28,946 nt of DNA from IMG/VR virus record IMGVR_UViG_2617270968_000004; one strand, 5' to 3'. The first letter of the stretch is position 1. Every line of letters starts with the position of its first letter. Below are positions 796-20,810 of this stretch, piece by piece. The position numbers and the translations under genes were made by a program. Below the pieces are notes generated by a model, which was not told the DNA's origin, searched no databases, and saw nothing but the letters and a program-made list of their open reading frames with translations. This stretch comes from a virus (taxonomy: Duplodnaviria; Heunggongvirae; Uroviricota; Caudoviricetes).

Positions 796-1213
796 CGTAA
801 GTAAAATCAGCCACCCACAGCTGGTCAGGTCGTTCTGCCACGAACTGACGGTTTACGCGGTCGCCTGCGGCAACGGCTTTCCGGCTGATGGTCGTACGGA
901 CCTTTTTACCCCGGAGAACACCGGCAAGTCCCATAACCGCCATGAGACGTGCCACAGTGCATCTGGCCACTCTGATACCTTCCCGTAACAACTGACGCCA
1001 GACTTTACGCACACCGTATACCTTGTGATTTTCATCGTATACGCGCTGTATCTCTTTCTTCAGCCAGTCATCGCGCTGCGCACGGGCACTGCGTTTATCC
1101 GGATGATGTCGCTGTTGCTGACAGTGGTAATACGTTGACGGGGCAATATGCAGTTCGCTGCATAGCGGTCCGACCCCGTACAGCTTACGCAGCTTATCCA
1201 GCAGTGGCATCAT
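796..1213 (-). pseudogene. IS3-family transposase OrfB, N-terminal part truncated by intron insertion
   Basis: [32 protein letters not shown]...WVADFTY matches IS629 OrfB up to FTY, then diverges into intron sequence (track ORF 731..1213). Confidence 0.75.
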
Positions 1214-1536
1214 TTTTTCCAGAGGCGGTCGAACTCCGCCTTCGCAAAATAAGCGGAAGCCTGGCGAAGGATATCGTTACTGCGGCGCAGTTCACGATTT
1301 TCACGTTCCAGCTCTTTCAGACGCTGACGTTCAGCGGTGGTGAGCCCTCCATCACCGCCCCCGGTATCCCGCTCATGCTGGCGAACCCAGACACGCAGAG
1401 TCTCCGGCGTACAGCCAATCTTTGGAGCAATGGAACAAATTGTCGCCCATTGTGAGTCATATTCGCTCTGACTTTCCAGAACCATACGGACTGCCCGTTG
1501 ACGGACTTCGGGGGAAAAACGAGTATTTTTAGTCAT
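1210..1536 (-). CDS. IS3-family transposase OrfA (IS629-type)
   Basis: 108-aa [25 protein letters not shown]... with helix-turn-helix and leucine-zipper-like C-terminus, characteristic of IS629/IS1203 OrfA. Confidence 0.85.
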
Positions 1537-2921: not shown

Positions 2922-3117
2922 AATAATAAATTAATTAGTGCATGTGTGCTCTTTGATATAGCGCACATTAACATCGGGAGAATAATCGTGTCATCCAAGG
3001 CTAATTATGAATCGCTGGCATCGATCATGCCGCGTAATGAACAGGAAGCAGATGCTGTAGTGGACCCGGTAATCGCTGAAATGAATGCTCGCCTGGAGGC
3101 TGAATTTGCAGCTGAGA

Positions 3118-8050: not shown

Positions 8051-11000
8051 CTATATTTTTCCGCCTACGCCTTTAAACTTCTCAATAAACGAGACGATTT
8101 TCTGGAAAACTGCCTGTTTTTTCGTTTTATATTGCGGATTTAACGGACTAAGTTTTGGTAATGTTTCGTTTAATTCTGTGCCATTTTCGGTGGCATATTC
8201 GCGTTTTAAAGACGTGCGAATATAGCGTTTTGCTGCATCTTCATTGAGATTTTCTTCTTTTATCAATGCTTCTGCTTCACGTTGCTGTTCGCGTTGAGCA
8301 AACGTAAAGAATGCGTCAATGATGCTGGCTTTGTCCGGTAAATCATCCAGGTTCGTTTGCTGAATAAAATCGACCACCAGGCCCTCTTTAGCACGGTTTC
8401 CCAGGCTTGAACGAATTAAGCGTTTGACCTCTTCGATCATTTCGCCCTTGCCTTTATTTTGTCTGTTGTGTTCGAAAATCAGTCCAAGGATATAATCCAG
8501 GTTTATTTCCTGAGACTTCAGCAAATCGACCTCAAAAACTACGTCATCCCAGTCAGTGGTTGATTTCTCTTTTTTCTCAGCTTCTTTCTCACGGCGCTGC
8601 CAGTCGCGAATATCGTTATAGGCAGAACGATAATCCTGAATCTTGCGATCAGCAGGGAGACGAATTGTTTGCAATTCAGCGAACTTTTCATCATCCACAT
8701 AATGTTCTGCTTTGAATTTTTCTACCGCAACAGGATCGCTAAGATCGATTTGTTGCAGGGCTTTTAGCGTGGCAAATTCATCATAGTTTTGCAGGATGTT
8801 CTCGGCACGCAGGTATTCGCCAAACAGTTTAACGAAGTCTTTCTTCTCTTTTTCACTTTCAATACTGGTAGGGTCAGGGAACCGTTGTTCCAGTTCTGAA
8901 ACTACTGTCATGAAGCCGCGTTTAGCTTCACCTGTAGCAGCATCAGTAAAGCCTTCCATATACTCTGTATAACTCTTTTCTAACACCACATTTTTGGTGT
9001 TTTTGTCACCAAACAGCGTTATGGCATCAATAGTTGAGCGTTCCAGATCCCGGAAAGTGACGATATTACCGAAGGTTTTAGTGGCGTCATAAATGCGGTT
9101 GGTGCGGGAAAATGCCTGCATCAGGCCGTGATAACGTAAGTTTTTATCGACGAATAGCGTGTTCAATGTTGGAGCATCGAAGCCGGTTAAGAACATCCCC
9201 ACGACAATTAGCAGATCGATATCCTGATTTTTAACCCGCTGGGCTAAATCACGATAGTAGTTCTGAAAACCGTTACTGTCGGTGCTAAAGTTAGTTTTAA
9301 AATGGCTGTTATATTCACGAATTGCAGCGTCCAGAAACTCTTTAGCACTGCTGTCCATTGCGCTGGTATCAAAAGTTTCATCGGAAATTTCACCAATGGC
9401 ATTTTGTTCTTCATTGGCGGCAAAGGAGAAGATTGTCGCAATACGCAGCGGTTTATAGGTAGCCGATTTATTAGCGGCTTCTTCTTGTAACCGTTTAAAC
9501 GTCGCATAATAGGCTTTCGCGGCATCCACGCTGCTCACTGCCAACATAGCATTAAAACCTTTTGAGCCAGGGAAGGTACGGTGGGTTTTCTGGCGGAAAT
9601 TATTCAGAATATATTGCGTGATTTCCTGAATACGCATGGGATGAAGAAACGCCTGCTGATTTTCAGCCGCACTCAGTTTTTTCTCGTCAGTTTCTGTCTC
9701 TAAAGACTTAAACTGTGGCCGCACATCGTTGTAGTCCACCTTGAATTTGAGCACTTTTTCGTCACGAATCGCATCGGTAATTACATACGAATGCAATTCA
9801 CGACCAAATACGCTGGCGGTTGTTTCTGAGCCTAAGGCGTTTTCCGGGAAAATAGGGGTGCCGGTAAAACCAAACTGATAATAGCGTTTGAATTTCTTCT
9901 TCAGGTTTTTCTGCGCTTCTCCAAACTGGCTGCGGTGGCATTCATCAAATATAAACACCACTTGCTGATTATATACAGGCAGATCGCTTTCTGCTTTCAT
10001 CAGGTTATTGAGTTTCTGAATAGTAGTGACGATAATTTTGTTATCGTCCTTATCCAGATTTCGTTTAAGGCCTGCGGTATTTTCCGAGCCGTTGACGCTG
10101 TCTGGCGAAAAACGCTGATATTCCTTCATGGTCTGGTAATCGAGGTCTTTCCTGTCGACCACAAAGAAGACTTTATCAATAAAGTCCAGCTCTGTTGCCA
10201 GACGCGCGGCTTTAAAGCTGGTGAGGGTTTTACCAGAACCGGTAGTGTGCCAGATATACCCACCGCTTTCCGGTTTTGACCAGTTCTTCGCTGTAAAGGA
10301 ACTCTTAATTTTCCACAGAATGCGCTCGGTGGCGGCAATCTGGTACGGTCGCATTACCAGTAGTGTCTGACTGCTGTCAAAAACGCTGTAGTTCACCAGA
10401 ACATTAAGCAGAGTATGTTTCTGGAAAAAGGTGGCGGTAAAGTCTTTGAGGTCTTTAATCAGCGTATTGTCTGATTTCGCCCAGTTCATGGTGAAGTCAA
10501 AACTGTTTTTATCGCGCTTTGTCGTGTTGGCAAAATAACGGGTATCAGTGCCGTTGGAAATGACGAACAGCTGCAGATACTTAAACAGGGAATTTTCGCT
10601 GTTAAAACTCTCTTTACTGTAACGATGTATCTGGTTGAAAGCCTCACGAATCGCCACGCCGCGTTTTTTCAGTTCGATTTGTACCAGCGGTAAGCCATTA
10701 ACCAGGATAGTTACGTCATAACGGTTAGCGTGAGAACCCGCCTGTTCAAACTGCTGGATAATCTGCACCTTATTGCGCATGAGATTCTTTTTATCTATCA
10801 AATAGATGTTCTCAAGACGCTCGTCATCAAAAATAAAGTCGCAAATATAGTCGATATGGATTTTACGGGTCTTATCCAGAATGCCATCGCTCGGGTTATC
10901 CAGATACTGCTCCGTGAAACGCCGCCACTCGCTGTCATTAAACACCACACCATTGAGGTTCTGAAGCTGTTCCCGAACATTGGCCAGCATCGCCGACTGT

Positions 11001-11167
11001 GATTTTACGGATATAAATTCATAGCCCTGATTCCGTAGGTCCTGTATCAGTTCGCGTTCCAGGTCCGATTCGCTCTGGTAGCTGTCGCCTGTTGGCTCAG
11101 CTTTGATGTACTTATCAAGAACGATAAAGTTATTGGATTCAGCAATGGTGTGTGTCTGATGAGTCAT
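8051..11167 (-). CDS. hsdR: Type I restriction enzyme R subunit (HsdR), type IC EcoR124-like
   Basis: 1038 aa; N-terminal PD-ExK nuclease motif ([17 protein letters not shown]), helicase motifs TGSGKT and DECH; size and N-terminus match the EcoR124 family as I recall it. Confidence 0.92.
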
Positions 11168-11288
11168 AGCGCATCCTTTGTGCCGTCTGGCAAGGGCCGG
11201 AAGGGGGGTAATGGTGACTTCCGGCGCGTAAAAAATAGTCTATATACTGACCGGGTGTTAAGGTGGTCCGATCGGTAGCAATGATCAA

Positions 11289-12503
11289 TTAATTACTGAC
11301 AGTTTCAGGTTTCGGGAAACTGAACAGTAAATCACGATAGTACTCGTATTGTTTCTGGCGCAACTCGATTTCACGCGGAAGACCTTCGGTGATGGAGTTA
11401 GTCAGTGTGTCGAATTTGTCGAGTATTTCGACAATTCGTTGTTGTTCATTGATGTTAGGAACCGGAATTTTAAATGAAAATAATTTTTTACTGTCAATAG
11501 AAGCTACGGACCCTCCTGTCTTTTTCGCTGCTCGCAGAATATCACTCCCCCTAGACCCAATCATATGATAAATATATTTAACCAAGATGTTTTCATGAGG
11601 AATGACTGCTTTCATATCTTGATTGAGCGTAGCAGGTACTTTTATTAATGCACTTGGTAATACTTTATCCAATATGCTTGAGCGAACAACGATTGCAATC
11701 GAGTTTGCTGGAATCAGTTTTGTTGACGATTGTAGAACAGCCTCCTCAGTTATATAGTCTTCCGAAGAGTCTACAAGTGTTCGGCCCATATCTTTCGGGG
11801 AAATCCATGGAATGCTTCCATTTTCCCAAAATTCAATTTTATTTTTTGATGGTGTCCCTCCCCCATACCATTTTCCGATCTCTCCCAAAGTCTTCCACTC
11901 AACCTCACCCTCTTTAAAACTCAACAACTGGTCGCGATAGTAGTTGTACTGTTTTTTACGCATGTTAAGCTCAGCGGTAAGCTCAGCGGTAAGTGCAGTA
12001 AATTTATCCAGAATCCGAACGATTTCAGACTGGATGGCAAGGGATTTTTCCGGATTATCCGGGCAGGGGATTGGGATTTTTTTTTGAGAATAATTACTAA
12101 TCCATTGGCGTTTATGGTCTCCCTCTGCGAATTCACTTGGTAATGTATTGAGCCAATAGTAAACATATTTCAGTAAGGTTTTATTATCATCACATGATGT
12201 AACCATTTTCATGGCCGATGATTTTGCCTTAAAGTCAAAATCCACCCATTTATTAGCGGTGGTGAAATCATCAAAAATTATTACAGGTGCCTTTGATGCC
12301 TGATAAATACCATGAGTCTCATTTGTGTATCCAAGAATAAATGTTTTTCCGGCAGTAAGAACCGGTATGGTATATGTGTCGTGATAATCTTTTGCTTTTA
12401 CCAAATACTTTGTTGGCTGTTCATATTTGGTTATTTCCCCCAATGGCAACCACTCAACTTCAACCCCATCCAGCAATTTTTCCAGATAACTCATCTCGCT
12501 CAT
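11289..12503 (-). CDS. hsdS: Type I restriction-modification specificity subunit (HsdS)
   Basis: 404 aa with two target-recognition domains separated by conserved regions ...[26 protein letters not shown] and ...[19 protein letters not shown]; 4-bp overlap with hsdM. Confidence 0.9.
11967..11990 (-). repeat. Tandem 12-bp repeat (2 copies) encoding TAEL-TAEL in the HsdS central conserved region
   Basis: Plus-strand AAGCTCAGCGGT x2; in type IC systems the copy number of this repeat sets the spacer length of the recognition site. Confidence 0.8.
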
Positions 12504-14062
12504 TTCTGCACCTCGCAGCCTTCAATTTCAGCCACAATCGCATCAATATCTTTGCGCAACTGGTCGATTTTGCTGACCGTGGTTTTCAGCTCAGCATTCA
12601 GCTCAGCAATATCGATAATTTCGCGGTTATCTTTCGCTTCCACATAGCTGCTCACCGACAGGTTATAGTCATTAGCAACAACGGTCTCAAACGCGACAGA
12701 TTTCGCCAGATGAGCAACATCTTCCTTGCTGGCAAATACCTGCATAATCTGTTCGATATGGGCATCGGTCAGGATATTGTTGTTAGTCTCTTTTTTGAAC
12801 AGTTCGCTGGCGTCAATAAACTGAACGTTGGTATCCGTTTTATGTTTGGACAGAACCAGAATGTTTACTGCAATGGTGGTGCCAAAGAACAGGTTCGGTG
12901 CCAGTGAAATTACGGTTTCGACATAGTTATTGTCAATCAGATACTGACGGATTTTCTGCTCCGCGCCGCCACGGTAAAAAATACCCGGGAAGCAAACAAT
13001 CGCAGCACGACCTTTGGCAGAAAGATAGTTCAGCGCATGTAATACAAACGCAAAGTCAGCTTTGGATTTGGGGGCCAGAACGCCAGCCGGGGCAAAACGT
13101 TCATCGTTAATCAGCGTCGGGTCATCGCTGCCAATCCATTTCACCGAATACGGCGGGTTAGAAACGATGGCATCAAACGGTTTTTCATCTCTGAAGTGTG
13201 GCTCAGTCAGTGTATTACCCAGCTTGATATCAAACTTGTCGTAGTTGATGTTGTGCAAAAACATGTTCATACGTGCCAGGTTATAGGTTGTATGGTTGAT
13301 TTCCTGACCAAAAAAGCCTTCTTCGATGATATGGTCATCAAACTGTTTTTTAGCCTGCAACAACAGCGAACCGGATCCTGCTGCCGGGTCGTAGATTTTG
13401 TTAACGTGGGTCTGCCCGTGCATAGCCAGTTGTGCAATCAGCTTAGAGACGTGTTGCGGTGTAAAGAACTCGCCGCCTGACTTACCGGCATTCGCCGCAT
13501 AGTTAGAAATCAGGAACTCATAGGCGTCACCGAACAGGTCAATCTGATGTTCGTTGAAGTCACCAAGTTTTAACCCTTCAACCCCTTTCAGAACCGCAGC
13601 CAGGCGGGCATTTTTATCTTTAACGGTGTTACCCAGGCGGTTACTGGTAGTATCGAAATCAGCAAACAAACCTTTGATGTCAGCTTCTGAAGGATAACCG
13701 TAAGCAGAACTTTCGATAGCAACGAAGATGCTGTTTAAATCTGCATTCAGTCTGTCATTAGTATTTGCTTTCGCAGCTACGTTGCAGAAAAGCTGACTGG
13801 GGTAGATGAAGTAGCCTTTAGTTTTGATGGCATCGTCTTTAATGTCATCAGTAATTACGCTGTCATCCAGTTTCGCATAACAGATACTGTCATCACCGGC
13901 TTCAATATAACTGGAAAAATTTTCGCTGATAAAACGGTAGAAAAGTGCGCCCAGAACGTATTGCTTAAAATCCCATCCATCGACCGAACCCCTGACATCG
14001 TTAGCAATTTGCCAGATTTGACGATGAAGCTCTGCACGTTGTTGAATACTTGTCATTTTCAT
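12500..14062 (-). CDS. hsdM: Type I restriction-modification N6-adenine DNA methyltransferase subunit (HsdM)
   Basis: 520 aa; AdoMet-binding [10 protein letters not shown] and catalytic NPPY motifs. Confidence 0.92.
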
Positions 14063-16183: not shown

Positions 16184-16766
16184 ATGTTACTTAACTGGCA
16201 GGGACGCCACTTCATGGAAATAAATCACTCACGAATAACATCGTACGAGATTGCGGATTACATGATCCGCACTAAATCTCTTCTATCAGCGAAAGAACTC
16301 GCAGCAATTCTTGAAAAGGAATACCCGCATCTGGATGTCGATAAGCGCGATGTTTATCTGCGCTTACGAACGAAAGCGTGAAAATAACTGGTCAGTGCTG
16401 GAAGCAGCTGAATTCATCGAGGCGCATGGCGGAAAAGTGCCGCCCCTGATGCTGGAGCAAATCAAAGCCGATCTGCGTGCTCCTAAGACCAATACCGATG
16501 ATGAGGAAAGGCAAACAGCCGTCGGTGGCCCTTCTCTTGAAGATCTGGACAAAGTTGCGCGAGAACGGGCCGCCAACCGCCGCGCCGATGCCGCATTGTG
16601 GATTGAGCAGCGTAGGGAAGAAATCGCCGATATCGTTGATACAGGCGGTTATGGAGATGTTGATACTGAAGGTGTATCAAACGACCCATGGCTGGAACAA
16701 GACCTGGACGAAGACGAGGAGGAAGACGAAGAAGTTACCCGCAAGCTATACGGGGATGATGATTAA
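16184..16766 (+). pseudogene. Candidate late gene (small-terminase or late-activator position) split across two frames
   Basis: ORF 16184..16381 (frame 2) and ORF 16311..16766 (frame 3, TTG-started in the track, acidic C-terminus [11 protein letters not shown]). A single +1 shift near 16375 would join them into about 190 aa; the stop overlaps the pacB start (TAATG). Confidence 0.3.
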
Positions 16767-18250
16767 TGGCCAGAAGTTGCGTAACGGATCCACGTTGGCG
16801 CGAGCTGGTGGCGCTATATCGTTATGACTGGATTGCTGCCGCTGATGTTTTGTTCGGCAAAACACCTACCTGGCAGCAGGATCTGATTATTGAGTCTGTG
16901 CAGGAACAGGGTAGCAAGACATCTGTTTCGTCTGGTCACGGTACCGGGAAATCAGACATGACTTCTATCATGATCATGTTGTTCATAATCATGTATCCCG
17001 GTGCCCGCGCCATTATCGTTGCGAACAAAATTCAGCAGGTAATGACCGGTATATTCAAGTACATCAAGATAAACTGGGCTACTGCCACCAGCCGTTTTCC
17101 ATGGCTTGCTGATTATTTTGTTCTGACAGAAACCGCTTTCTATGAGGTTACTGGTAAAGGTGTATGGACTGTAGTACCGAAGGGCTTTCGTCTGGGAAGT
17201 GAAGAAGCTCTCGCCGGTGAACACGCAGATCATCTTCTGTATATTATCGATGAAGCCTCCGGTGTCAGTGATAGAGCTTTCGGTATCATCACCGGTGCTC
17301 TTACCGGACAGGATAACCGCATCTTATTGCTGTCACAGCCTACACGCCCAAGCGGCTATTTCTACGATACACACCATAAACTGGCCAAGCGTCCTGGTAA
17401 CCCTGATGGCGTTTATACGGCGATCACGCTTAACAGTGAGGAATCACCGTTGGTAACGCCAGCATTTATCAAAATGAAGCTGGCGGAGTACGGCGGGCGT
17501 GATAACCCTATGTACATGATTAAGGTACGCGGCCTATTCCCTAAATCACAGGATGGCTTCCTTCTTGGACGTGATGAGGTTGAACGTGCAACGCGGCGGA
17601 AAGTCAAGATTGCCAAAGGATGGGGCTGGCTTGCATGTGTGGACGTTGCTGGTGGTACGGGACGGGATAAGTCCGTTATCAATATCATGATGGTGTCCGG
17701 CCAGCGAAATAAACGCCGTGTAATCAACTATCGAATGCTGGAATACACAGACGTTACAGAAACGCAGCTTGCCGCCAAAATTTTCGCAGAATGTAATCCT
17801 GAGCGATTCCCAAATATCACCATAGCGATAGACGGCGATGGCCTGGGTAAAGCAACGGCGGATCTGATGTACGAGTATTATGGTATTACCGTACAGCGTA
17901 TACGCTGGGGTAAAAAGATGCATAGCCGTGAAGATAAGAGCCTGTACTTTGATAAACGTGCTTATGCCAACGTTCAAGCCGCAGAGGCCGTAAAATCTGG
18001 TCGTATGAGACTGGATAAGGGTAATGAAACTATTGAGGAAGCGTCGAAAATCCCTGTAGGGATTAACTCCGCAGGTCAATGGAAGGTGATGAGTAAGGAG
18101 GATATGAAGAAAAAACTCAACCTGCACTCACCAGACCATTGGGATACATATTGTTTCGCTATGCTGGCGGATTATGTTCCCCAGGATGAAGTGCTTAGCG
18201 TCGAAGACGAAGCGCAGGTTGATGAAGCTCTGGCATGGCTTAATGAATGA
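16766..18250 (+). CDS. pacB: Terminase large subunit PacB
   Basis: 494 aa (the P1 PacB length as I recall it); Walker A-like GHGTGKS near the N-terminus; translational coupling to the upstream ORF. Confidence 0.8.
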
Positions 18251-18253
18251 ATA

Positions 18254-18270
18254 TTTGCTCTAATAAATTG
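18254..18270 (+). promoter_or_regulatory. C1 operator (TTTGCTCTAATAAATTG)
   Basis: 15/17 match, 4 bp after the pacB stop. Confidence 0.55.
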
Positions 18271-18395
18271 TGTTTTTTAACTACCGATGTTACATTGAGC
18301 CTGACCTCTTGCGCCTTGAGGCATTTTCGGTTTATGCTTATCAGGCACCTCATTAAAACGGGTGCCGGGATTGGCCTCCCGCTTAAGTCTAAGGC

Positions 18396-18425
18396 GATAC
18401 AGACGCCGCTCGCGTCTTTTTTTTG
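18396..18425 (+). terminator. Rho-independent terminator
   Basis: Stem AGACGC/GCGTCT with 5-nt loop followed by T8 (18418..18425). Confidence 0.6.
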
Positions 18426-18589
18426 TATCGGCGTACACGCACACCTCTACAATGGTGGGCTGTATGGGGCTACCTTCGGGTAGGCTGGTTACCTTGGACG
18501 CCAGTAAGGCCAACTCCGTACAGTCCACCGCCAGCAAGATTGGTCTCTTCTGCGGTGGTTACATACCAACGTCTAAGGAGGCTGCCAAT

Positions 18590-18811
18590 ATGGCTACTAT
18601 CCCTATCCCAACTCATCCTGAATTTATCTGGCGCTTTTACTCCTGCCAAAAACGTCACTATCACTTCGTTATTGCACCGACAGAAGATGAGGCCCGCTCT
18701 CAGCTTCCTGACGCCCCATGTATTTTCTCTGCCCGTTTTTCCACTGATTCACGCAATTCTCTCAGTTACTGGTGCCTCCCTGTTAACGCTTCTGCTCAGG
18801 AGGGACTATGA
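18590..18811 (+). CDS. icd: Icd-like small protein (73 aa) translationally coupled to the antirepressor gene
   Basis: ATG 18590 preceded by AAGGAGG; 73 aa, the P1 Icd length as I recall it; stop overlaps the ant start (ATGA). Confidence 0.5.
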   Translation: MATIPIPTHPEFIWRFYSCQKRHYHFVIAPTEDEARSQLPDAPCIFSARFSTDSRNSLSYWCLPVNASAQEGL

Positions 18812-19926
18812 GAACGTCATTAGTCACCCGTGAAGAGATGATCGAGGCAATTGAACAGCACACTGCCTGTATCAGTACCAGGGATATACCAGGCGTTATT
18901 GCCAACTACTTCATGATCACCAAACAACTTTACCGGAGAAAGGACAAGAACGCGGTTCACCGTATCCTGTTGTCTGATATCCGCGAATACCTGCTCGAAC
19001 AGGGTCATCTGAATTACGCAACCGCCGCAGCCGAAGCACGCAAGGAGGCACACAGAATGAAAGCAACTAACGTTAAATCAGAAAAAATTCATGCACCTTC
19101 AGTTCAAGAATCGGAGCTGGTGGTTGTTCAGAATCAGTCTGATGAAATTCCCGTTCTGGAATGGCAGGGAGTGCGTGTAGTGACAACCGAGACTCTTGCT
19201 AGAGGGTATGGGACAGAAACAATCCGTATTCGCCAAAATCATCATGAGAACAAAGTACGCTTTGTTGAAGGGAAGCACTTTTTCAAAGTTGAAGGAGAAT
19301 CATTGCGCGAGTTGAAGCACAGAGTAGCTTTAAACTACTCTGTAAAAATTGCTCGCAATGTTCGCTCACTCACCCTCTGGACAGAACGCGGCGCAGCCCG
19401 CCACGCTAAAATGCTCGAAACCGATCAGGCATGGGCATTCTTTGAAAAACTGGAAGACAGCTACTTCCGACAAAAAGAACAGCAACCGATCGCAATCCCC
19501 CAGACGCTTCCTGAAGCCCTACGCCTGGCTGCCGAACTGGCTGAACAAAAGCAACTTCTGGAACAGAAAGCCCACCAGCTAAATCAGCAGCTGGTGGCCG
19601 CCGCTCCTAAAGTCGATTTTGCCGACCGGGTATCAGTAGCTAAAGGGATCCTGATTGGGAATTTTGCAAAGGTTGTTGGACTTAAACAAAACGCGCTGTT
19701 TGTCTGGTTACGGGAGAACGGCATCCTGATAGCGTCCGGTGGACGTAAAAATGTGCCGTTCCAGCAGTACATCAACGCGGGGTATTTCACGGTGAAAGAA
19801 GTGGTGCTGGATGATGAAGATGGCTACCAGATACGGTTGACGCCTCAATTAACGGGTAAAGGCCAGCAGTGGTTGACGCGTAAACTGCTCGATGCTGGCT
19901 TGTTAAAACCGGTGGCGGCTGAATAA
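18808..19926 (+). CDS. ant: Antirepressor Ant1-like (ORF6N plus KilAC/Ant domains), with in-frame internal Ant2-like start at 19057
   Basis: 372 aa; central VLEWQGVRVVTTETLARGYG... and C-terminal VDFADRVSVAKG...FVWLRENGIL antirepressor-type regions; internal in-frame ATG 19057 has its own AAGGAGG, giving a 290-aa product. Confidence 0.6.
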   Translation: MRTSLVTREEMIEAIEQHTACISTRDIPGVIANYFMITKQLYRRKDKNAVHRILLSDIREYLLEQGHLNYATAAAEARKEAHRMKATNVKSEKIHAPSVQESELVVVQNQSDEIPVLEWQGVRVVTTETLARGYGTETIRIRQNHHENKVRFVEGKHFFKVEGESLRELKHRVALNYSVKIARNVRSLTLWTERGAARHAKMLETDQAWAFFEKLEDSYFRQKEQQPIAIPQTLPEALRLAAELAEQKQLLEQKAHQLNQQLVAAAPKVDFADRVSVAKGILIGNFAKVVGLKQNALFVWLRENGILIASGGRKNVPFQQYINAGYFTVKEVVLDDEDGYQIRLTPQLTGKGQQWLTRKLLDAGLLKPVAAE

Positions 19927-19958
19927 TGGAAGAATGCCCGGTTGATGCCGGGCATAAT

Positions 19959-20810
19959 TTATTGCGCGCTTTCGGGGTTGTCGTTTACTGGCTGCCCCTT
20001 CTTGGTTTTACGGCTGCGCGTAACTGATGCGGCTGACTTAACCTTTTTCTCTTCGCGAGTGATGGCAATTTGTTTTTTTACATTTTCAATATCTGCCAGG
20101 CGATATATTTTTGCTTGCGGCCAGCGGTCGCAGATGATCGGTTCTATGGAGTCATAAAGGCTAAATTTTGCTTTTTCGAATTCACCGTTGATGATAATTC
20201 CATCACGGAGAGTTTCATCGCAGATAAACACGCCACACAGTGGCACATGGTAACTAACTGATTTACCATCATTGTAGTTAGGGCTACTGGAAATGTAGTG
20301 GACGCGCAGCATTGTTTCGCTAAAGCCGTGTACGCGCATACGGAATTTTTCATCCTCCGGGTACTGCTTCATTAGCTCTTTTGTTGCTTCCAGGTTCTCT
20401 ATGTATTTCGCACTGTGCTCATTGATCCCCGCGCTTTTTTGGATGCGAATGTCCTTATCAATCAGATGAATAATGCGGCCAGCGGTCATGTTGACGCTGT
20501 TCACAGCTTCTGTCTGATAAGTTGTAACCTTACGCACACCGCGAAGGATGTTAGGCACTGGATATAAAATAGTCTTTGGGATATTGAGGTCTGGGTACTG
20601 TTCCAGTTCCCGCGCCATTAAAGTCCATTTATCAATTTCAGCCTGAATGCTGTCAGTTTCTTTGAACGGTAGAACGACAACCGGGCGTACAGGACGACCG
20701 TCGCTGGCTGTATCAACGTGTTGGGCGCGTGCAACAGCTTTTTTTAGAAAGAGATCCCTGAAGCTGACGAACTCCTGGTACAGTTGTTCGCCGTAGACAT
20801 AATTTATCAT
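19959..20810 (-). CDS. c1: C1 repressor of lysis (P1-type primary repressor)
   Basis: 283 aa, the P1 C1 length as I recall it; its cognate operators are scattered through the window and coi lies immediately upstream. Confidence 0.8.
   Translation of the reverse strand: MINYVYGEQLYQEFVSFRDLFLKKAVARAQHVDTASDGRPVRPVVVLPFKETDSIQAEIDKWTLMARELEQYPDLNIPKTILYPVPNILRGVRKVTTYQTEAVNSVNMTAGRIIHLIDKDIRIQKSAGINEHSAKYIENLEATKELMKQYPEDEKFRMRVHGFSETMLRVHYISSSPNYNDGKSVSYHVPLCGVFICDETLRDGIIINGEFEKAKFSLYDSIEPIICDRWPQAKIYRLADIENVKKQIAITREEKKVKSAASVTRSRKTKKGQPVNDNPESAQ

Follow-up and report, generated by a model that had tools for sequence, protein, structure and literature searches.

The 28,946-nt stretch of DNA analysed here (the window) is a segment of a P1-like phage-plasmid. 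Between pacB and the c1 repressor gene it carries an operator, a leader RNA, an antisense RNA and the genes icd and ant1/ant2, a module that is probably a complete and functional second circuit of the P1 immI type, i.e. an antirepressor operon gated by a processed antisense RNA (Table 1). The tripartite immunity of P1, the textbook phage-plasmid, consists of immC, immI and immT and was worked out on laboratory P1 and P7, both of which are without the pacB-c1 module. The module is widespread in wild relatives of P1, has already been noticed at the gene level and belongs with the C4-gated antirepressor operons, a family that is already known. As far as the literature could be checked, there is no earlier account of its RNA components, of its five specificity classes or of its expected orthogonality to the canonical immI locus.

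Architecture of the pacB-c1 module

In P1 the stop codons of pacB and c1 are just 25 bp apart, and the immI locus (Op51, c4, icd and ant1/ant2) lies about 45 kb away, between sim and kilA-repL. Positions 18251-19958 (1.7 kb) of the window are therefore extra sequence relative to P1, and the module, which is convergent to c1, occupies a position that is empty in canonical P1 and P7. An earlier note on this DNA, made from the sequence alone, had rightly placed the canonical P1 module far from c1, and the synteny comparison confirmed that P1 does not share the gene order of the window. The note had also described, downstream of pacB, a C1 operator, a structured leader with an intrinsic terminator, a 73-aa open reading frame (ORF) with a strong Shine-Dalgarno (SD) sequence and a translationally coupled 372-aa antirepressor-like gene. 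All of these were recovered, the structured leader being composed of an isrK-type RNA and a C4 RNA. The possibility that the 25-bp spacer of P1 is a remnant of the hairpin at the end of the module was considered and rejected, as the alignment gave no meaningful similarity; the module may have been gained by wild elements or lost by P1 and P7.

The module starts with a predicted C1 operator that overlaps the first of two candidate promoters, as in P1 and P7 immI, and that aligns with P1 Op51 (AATGCTCTAATAAATTT). Five C1 operator sites were observed in the window against 0.04 expected by chance, at a limit of two mismatches to the consensus which this site does not exceed, and the operator is kept, with single-base variants, in about 60 related loci. 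The overlapped promoter candidate is positionally homologous to the annotated P2c4 promoter of P1 (alignment A1) and is a weak match (7 of 12 positions). The second candidate would start transcription near 18345, which is where the Rfam isrK match begins, 7 nt past the -10 hexamer. Its hexamers are kept in all alleles, including the differently located copies L032 and L042; these are isrK-type modules with an operator of their own, ATTGCTCTAATTATTTT, at a site that is not flanked by pacB or c1.

An Rfam search of the window at gathering thresholds identified two structured RNAs downstream of the candidate promoters, an isrK-type leader that ends in an intrinsic terminator and a C4 antisense RNA, whose Rfam family also includes the C4 of P1 and P7. 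By analogy with P1, the mature C4 RNA would span about 18454-18529. Unlike the module and its alleles, P1 has a leader of the c4-a1b1 family (RF03163); this model matches P1 and other loci, but not the module leader. C4 alone folds with its recognition loops a' and b' exposed (z = -3.75), and in the minimum free energy fold of 18345-18610 these loops are paired in cis with the a1 and b1 sites of the leader (z = -3.58). The C4 stem pairs are all kept in 20 distinct sequences, with 7 of the 16 outer-stem pairs changed on both sides.

The icd gene downstream of C4 encodes a protein that is identical to P1 Icd at 54 of 73 positions (74%). It matches the NCBIfam model phage_ICD_like (NF033153, 2.6e-13), and a Pfam scan of Icd returned no family. 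Comparison with four other alleles gave pN/pS values of 0.04-0.11, i.e. icd is under purifying selection. The ATGA overlap that couples ant1 to icd is kept in all loci and is shared with P1. Ant1 is related to P1 Ant1 as well, although the homology is not full-length: identity is 63% over residues 1-83, which correspond to the Ant1-specific N-terminus of P1, and about 90% over the C-terminal KilAC part, whereas the middle (residues 84-228), with 25% identity, is unrelated. Pfam places an ORF6N domain at residues 116-202 and KilAC/ANT at residues 260-361, and finds no ORF6N domain in P1 Ant1. The internal in-frame start M84 aligns exactly with the annotated start of P1 Ant2. The earlier note had seen this start and its own SD sequence but counted 290 residues for the product, which has 289, and its statement that the sizes match those of P1 holds for Icd (73 aa in both) and not for Ant1 and Ant2, which have 347 and 264 aa in P1 against 372 and 289 aa here because the central domain is replaced by ORF6N.

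The operon is intact, with an Ant of 370-372 aa, in 50 of the 60 complete loci, and the SD sequence and ATG of ant2 are kept in 55 of 56 loci. The ORF6N core (window 19162-19377, Ant residues ca. 119-190; also in L002, L003 and others) is a diversification hotspot in otherwise near-identical proteins. At least six types of it exist, sharing 47-84% identity, and they have been reshuffled with respect to the c4 class; C1, by comparison, is 99-100% identical. The closest relatives of this core are Ant proteins of Stx-converting lambdoid phages (50-64% identity). Between the convergent stop codons of ant and c1 lies a GC-rich hairpin which is likely a terminator shared by both genes.

Table 1. Features of the module and of the adjoining genes, in positions of the window
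Feature	Position	Strand	Basis or remark
pacB	16766-18250		adjoins module upstream
C1 operator, predicted (Op51/Oc4 equivalent), TTTGCTCTAATAAATTG	18254-18270	+	2 mismatches to consensus ATTGCTCTAATAAATTT
Operator-overlapped promoter candidate (P51a/P2c4 equivalent)	-35 TTGTGT 18268-73; -10 TACATT 18291-96	+	17-nt spacer; inferred
Second promoter candidate (P51b/P1c4 equivalent)	-35 TTGCGC 18309-14; -10 TATGCT 18333-38	+	18-nt spacer; inferred
isrK-type leader RNA	18345-18425	+	Rfam RF01394 over 18345-18422, 60.8 bits (gathering score 50), full model
a1 decoy/target site, TTGGCCT	18371-77	+	in isrK-type leader
b1 decoy/target site, GTCTAAGG	18387-94	+	in isrK-type leader
Intrinsic terminator of leader	hairpin 18401-17; T-run 18418-25 (T8)	+	terminator scan
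C4 antisense RNA gene	18448-18535	+	Rfam RF01695, 75.9 bits (gathering score 45)
b' recognition loop of C4, CCTTGGAC	18492-99	+	
a' recognition loop of C4, AGGCCAA	18507-13	+	
Downstream C4 target region (a2 and b2)	18540-18581	+	layout as a2/b2 in P1
a2 downstream C4 target, TTGGTCT	18540-46	+	
b2 downstream C4 target, GTCTAAGG	18571-78	+	overlaps icd SD AAGGAGG (18575-81)
icd, 73 aa, cell-division inhibitor Icd-like	18590-18811	+	SD AAGGAGG 18575-81; leader ORF needed for ant translation
ant1, 372 aa	18808-19926	+	start overlaps icd stop (ATGA)
ant2, 289 aa, in-frame internal start M84	19057-19926	+	SD AAGGAGG 19042-48
GC-rich hairpin, 9-bp stem	19934-19955		between convergent ant and c1 stop codons; terminator scan
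c1 repressor gene	19959-20810	-	NCBIfam phage_rep_C1 equivalog, 611 bits; 99% identical to P1 C1

Recognition sequences of C4 and its targets

The C4 RNA of P1 carries the loops a' (CUGUCAA) and b' (UCACUAAC), which pair with a1/b1 upstream and with a2/b2 downstream, b2 being located at the ribosome-binding site of icd. The module has the same elements in the same order and spacing (a1, b1, b', a', a2, b2), again with b2 on the SD sequence of icd, but the loops differ: b' is CCUUGGAC and a' is AGGCCAA. A search for further C4 targets in the window found the composite a..b motif only at the two expected places, in the leader and in the downstream target.

Scanning IMG/VR with Icd gave 79 loci, more than 60 of which have the order pacB-module-c1. 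The 65 loci with a readable leader, nearly all at the pacB-c1 site, were typed into five specificity classes: A1B1 (28 loci, including the window), A2B3 (15, for example phage JL22), A3B3 (10), A2B2 (8, for example phage RCS47) and A3B2 (4). The sequences a1/a'/a2 and b1/b'/b2 are perfectly complementary in all five classes. Covariation was evaluated on alignment A2, which holds 29 sequences, 20 of them distinct. For the C4 stems and the pairings a1:a', b1:b', a':a2 and b':b2, 100% of the cells are in standard pairs, as compared to 29-50% with slid partners, and 4 of the 7 a-pairs and 3 of the 8 b-pairs have changed on both sides. Reassortment of the a and b types means that the data record more than one event, though few independent lineages contribute. 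In the literature searched we found no earlier description of such perfect co-variation, over five classes, of the C4 loops with their upstream and downstream targets.

The module sequences also differ from those of the canonical locus. P1 c4 has mismatches to the module targets at two a-positions and at three to four b-positions, and all five module classes are mismatched to canonical c4. The b' loops have the form UCAnnnnn in the canonical immI loci of phages vB_EcoM-673R5 (673R5), RCS47, JL22 and P1, and CCUUnnnn in the module. The two circuits should therefore not cross-react when present in one genome, and because of these mismatches the module would add an independent heteroimmunity determinant. 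Reassorting a and b classes are found in the canonical c4 as well (L004, L086, L087 and L088, corresponding to P1, 673R5, RCS47 and JL22): a' reads either CUGUCAA or CUGCUAA, and for b' there are the variants UCACUAAC, UCAUUCGU and UCACAAUC, with matching a1/b1 and a2/b2 sites each time.

Origin and distribution

Whereas the operator, Icd, the Ant termini and the common position of the Ant2 start relate the module to P1 and P7 immI, its other parts have lambdoid relatives. The DNA of positions 18346-18600, covering isrK and C4, is 79-80% identical to that of Stx2a phages such as phi191 and TL-2011c, and Stx-converting lambdoid phages carry isrK-C4-antirepressor cassettes. A comparable locus is isrK-orf45-anrP of Gifsy-1 from Salmonella, here compared by locus layout. 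Its isrK-type RNA ends in a Rho-independent terminator with partial read-through and is followed by a processed C4-like RNA (STnc1160); it also has a small upstream ORF of which the stop codon overlaps the antirepressor start (AUGA), and a leader complementary to the downstream RNA, which allows alternative structures (PMC4825925). Likewise, the pairs a1:a' and b1:b' of the module are complementary and co-vary. In Gifsy-1 there is an inactive 'structure A', and the short IsrK RNA activates translation of the antirepressor (PMC4825925); the leader fold of the module, with a1/b1 paired to a'/b', matches structure A. Unlike the Gifsy-1 and Stx-phage cassettes, the cassette of the module stands under a P1 C1 operator, its coupled ORF is a P1-type icd that lies downstream of C4 without overlap, and its antirepressor is of the P1 two-start Ant1/Ant2 type with the P1 N-terminal extension. 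The module is thus evidently chimeric: its operator, icd, Ant termini and two-start architecture are those of P1 immI, and the remainder is that of a lambdoid isrK-C4-antirepressor cassette. The immunity region of satellite phage P4 (seqA - CI RNA - seqC) also produces a processed antisense RNA that pairs with sites on both sides in the same transcript, but P4 CI acts by premature transcription termination of the replication genes, and P4 has no icd or ant. IsrK was described by the authors of the Gifsy-1 study as a structural homologue of P4 SeqA (PMC4825925).

The same insertion is present in phages 673R5 (99.7%), RCS47 (92%) and JL22 (88%). These three, pTZ20_1P and about 270 PLSDB plasmids have the site and gene order of the window at 88-99.9% DNA identity, with RCS47 and JL22 differing from the window in C4 specificity class. 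At least 80% of the pacB-end/module/c1-end sequence was covered in 268 PLSDB plasmids, and an uninterrupted P1-type junction was present in 314. At least 80% of the operator-to-icd part was found in 260 of 5426 complete E. coli genomes. About 45% of the junction-typed P1-like PLSDB plasmids hold, beside c1, a second antisense-gated antirepressor operon with an independent, multi-allelic recognition code, and many of the P1-like elements for which the module is relevant carry resistance genes.

The module was briefly mentioned, at the gene level and with RCS47 named, by Venturini et al. 2019 (PMC6906374). No other mention was found in the searchable literature, and two likely sources outside that search may describe more. 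The site also shows annotation gaps: the records of 673R5, RCS47 and JL22 have no c4 or isrK RNA annotated at the pacB-c1 site (in RCS47, c4 is annotated at the canonical locus only), and the PGAP pipeline places an 'ash family protein' pseudogene over c4. In the 673R5 record (L001, ON470615.2, 5606-7605) ant is shortened to 257 aa and c1 is broken into fragments, despite 99.7% DNA identity to the window; these breaks look like homopolymer sequencing errors and not like biology.

Additionally, some P1-like contigs have a further c4-icd locus with a P1-type c4-a1b1 leader (L069-L084, e.g. L079, L080 and L077, which are on the same contigs as L054, L063 and L018). It is located about 6-7 kb from the pacB-c1 module, beyond cre, in agreement with the icd-ant1/2 homologues that have been reported for RD-1 of pSvP1. 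A single element can therefore hold three modules of this kind; the 42-kb contig IMGVR_UViG_2698536372_000019 has three icd loci. Other loci are rearranged internally. In L013 (2757-4785) isrK-C4-icd is duplicated in tandem, with icd at 3001 and 4567. In L056 (ca. 2950-3000) the leader and c4 are lost and pacB-internal sequence is fused directly to b2 and the icd SD sequence, so this copy may be unregulated. Together with the five classes, natural variants of this kind (without c4, or with duplications) constitute ready-made test material.

Proposed mechanism and alternatives

The mechanism proposed here is modelled on P1 immI and on the leader behaviour of Gifsy-1 IsrK (PMC4825925). It builds on the anatomy, the homologies, the selection on icd and the three-site covariation described above; what it says on promoters, on RNA processing, on the leader as decoy, on Rho polarity and on Ant binding to C1 is inferred by analogy. 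Transcription would start at two tandem promoters, the first of which would be shut by C1 at the operator. Most transcripts would stop at the leader terminator (18425) as a leader RNA of about 80 nt, while read-through transcripts would contain C4, which would be cut out and accumulate. Pairing of the C4 loops a'/b' with a2/b2 would then cover the ribosome-binding site of icd and leave icd untranslated, and the coupled ant1/ant2 would be silent too, probably with Rho-dependent polarity as in P1. The a1/b1 sites, in cis or on the short leader RNA, may compete for C4 as competitor or decoy. When transcription rises, or when a phage with the module enters a cell with a non-matching C4, Icd and Ant would be made, and Ant1/Ant2 would inactivate C1, the product of the neighbouring gene, leading to lytic growth. 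In this scheme c1 is both the presumed regulator of the operator and the presumed source of the target of Ant. For P1 immI, such a working is reportedly established through the studies of Citron and Schuster in 1990, Biere et al. in 1992 and Heinrich et al. in 1995.

Most likely the module acts on C1 as a further circuit of heteroimmunity and induction, independent of canonical immI; this reading is supported by the coexistence of canonical immI with different a/b sequences in 673R5, RCS47 and JL22. If active, it should affect prophage stability, spontaneous induction and the coexistence or displacement of P1-like elements. Several points weigh against it. A strict sigma-70 consensus scan found no promoter upstream of the leader, and both candidates, being weak matches, rest on homology with annotated P1 promoters. 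The intrinsic terminator lies between these promoters and c4, and the supply of C4 therefore depends on read-through. Only a small number of independent lineages underlie the covariation, despite the reassortment of a and b classes. The RNA species and the binding of C1 and Ant are deduced from sequence. The window element has lost lpa/pacA sequence, so that the circuit of this replicon is unable to bring about phage production. Finally, the Ant core differs from that of P1 Ant and is hypervariable while C1 is invariant, and binding to C1 is therefore not assured.

This last point leads to the alternative that the regulation is as described, but that P1 C1 is not the target of Ant, or is one target among several, and that Ant acts on repressors of other resident prophages, such as Stx or lambdoid ones, or on some different partner that varies. 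In that case the module, under the control of C1 and C4, would serve for cross-talk or against competitors. We consider this rather unlikely, though it is the most credible of the alternatives. The six or more ORF6N types, reshuffled against the c4 class next to a nearly constant C1, would fit such a role, and so would the Stx-phage affinities of both the ORF6N core and the isrK-C4 cassette. On the other hand, the N-terminus and KilAC C-terminus of Ant are P1-like, the module has a C1 operator and adjoins c1, and variability of the core is compatible with C1 binding, as the C1-contacting domain of Ant is not known to us. It is very improbable that the module has lost its function and is decaying as a passive leftover of recombination with a lambdoid phage. 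Some loci do have a truncated ant (60-257 aa), an insertion sequence (IS), a tandem duplication or a leader deletion, and the element of the window is itself defective, but an operon that is intact in 50 of 60 loci, the low pN/pS of icd, the conserved SD sequence and start of Ant2 and compensatory changes perfectly kept at three sites in five classes are not what decay would leave.

It is likewise improbable, if slightly less so, that the module is the only immI of its element, moved next to c1 by rearrangement. No other c4 or icd occurs within the 29-kb window, and the 39-kb plasmid NZ_CP069970.1 has one matching place only. However, 673R5, RCS47 and JL22 each also have a canonical sim-c4-icd-ant-kilA locus, 93-96% identical to that of P1, to which the module is additional, and nearly all of the top plasmid hits have 2-4 matching places. 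The module moreover differs from canonical immI in leader type, Icd (74% identity) and Ant core, which argues for a paralogue, i.e. an additional diverged copy, and not for a moved one. Where the earlier note had offered a distinct arrangement or a rearrangement, the first thus describes the convergent module and the second is contradicted by relatives that keep both loci. Least credible of all is a leader that encodes a small protein in place of regulatory RNAs. It would agree with the incomplete 'ash family protein' pseudogene that RefSeq/PGAP annotates over the c4 RNA (window 18452-18565; L085 1699-1812) and with a match of Pfam Phage_ASH (PF10554, 1.2e-9) to the translation of 18362-18808. 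The matched frame, however, runs through c4 into icd, PGAP itself flags its call as incomplete, and the Rfam scores exceed the gathering thresholds. Near-identical alleles differ by single-base indels: the leader has T-runs of 6 to 9, a variation that speaks against coding, and 673R5 has a CCT-CCG deletion. The substitutions are compensatory for RNA pairing; together, the indels and the covariation led us to reject a coding leader of the Ash family. Both the PGAP call and the Pfam match look like artefacts of the conserved RNA, and translated RNA regions of the C4/CI type may have contributed in part to the Phage_ASH family.

Extending the reading of the module as a second circuit acting on C1, one may speculate, with a good deal of reserve, that wild P1-like phage-plasmids run two or three orthogonal C4-gated circuits (canonical immI, the pacB-c1 module and a third beyond cre), the reassorting classes of which would form a combinatorial immunity code that decides on coexistence, exclusion and induction among P1 relatives. 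The ORF6N core might in addition act on repressors of Stx/lambdoid prophages.

The gene order in the window is type I restriction-modification cluster, phd/doc, pdcB, a fused lpa/pacA remnant, pacB, the module, c1, coi and cre. The remnant (16184-16766) lacks about 1.14 kb that RCS47 and P1 possess, and its junction (16351-16366) shows 16 bp of microhomology. Through this deletion lpa has lost its 3' part and pacA its 5' two-thirds, the late pac promoter and the pac site are gone as well, and the window element should therefore be unable to activate late genes or to package DNA; the same junction was found in no PLSDB plasmid. Near the left end of the window, an ALIL pseudoknot (RF01497, 119 bits; 1139-1255, minus strand) marks the frameshift element of an IS3-family insertion sequence. 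The type I restriction-modification cluster (8051-14062, minus strand), upstream of phd/doc, has ORFs of 1038, 404 and 520 aa, which are HsdR, S subunit and M subunit according to the labels in matching plasmid records; P1 itself has just a remnant, annotated as similar to sequence upstream of an hsd locus.

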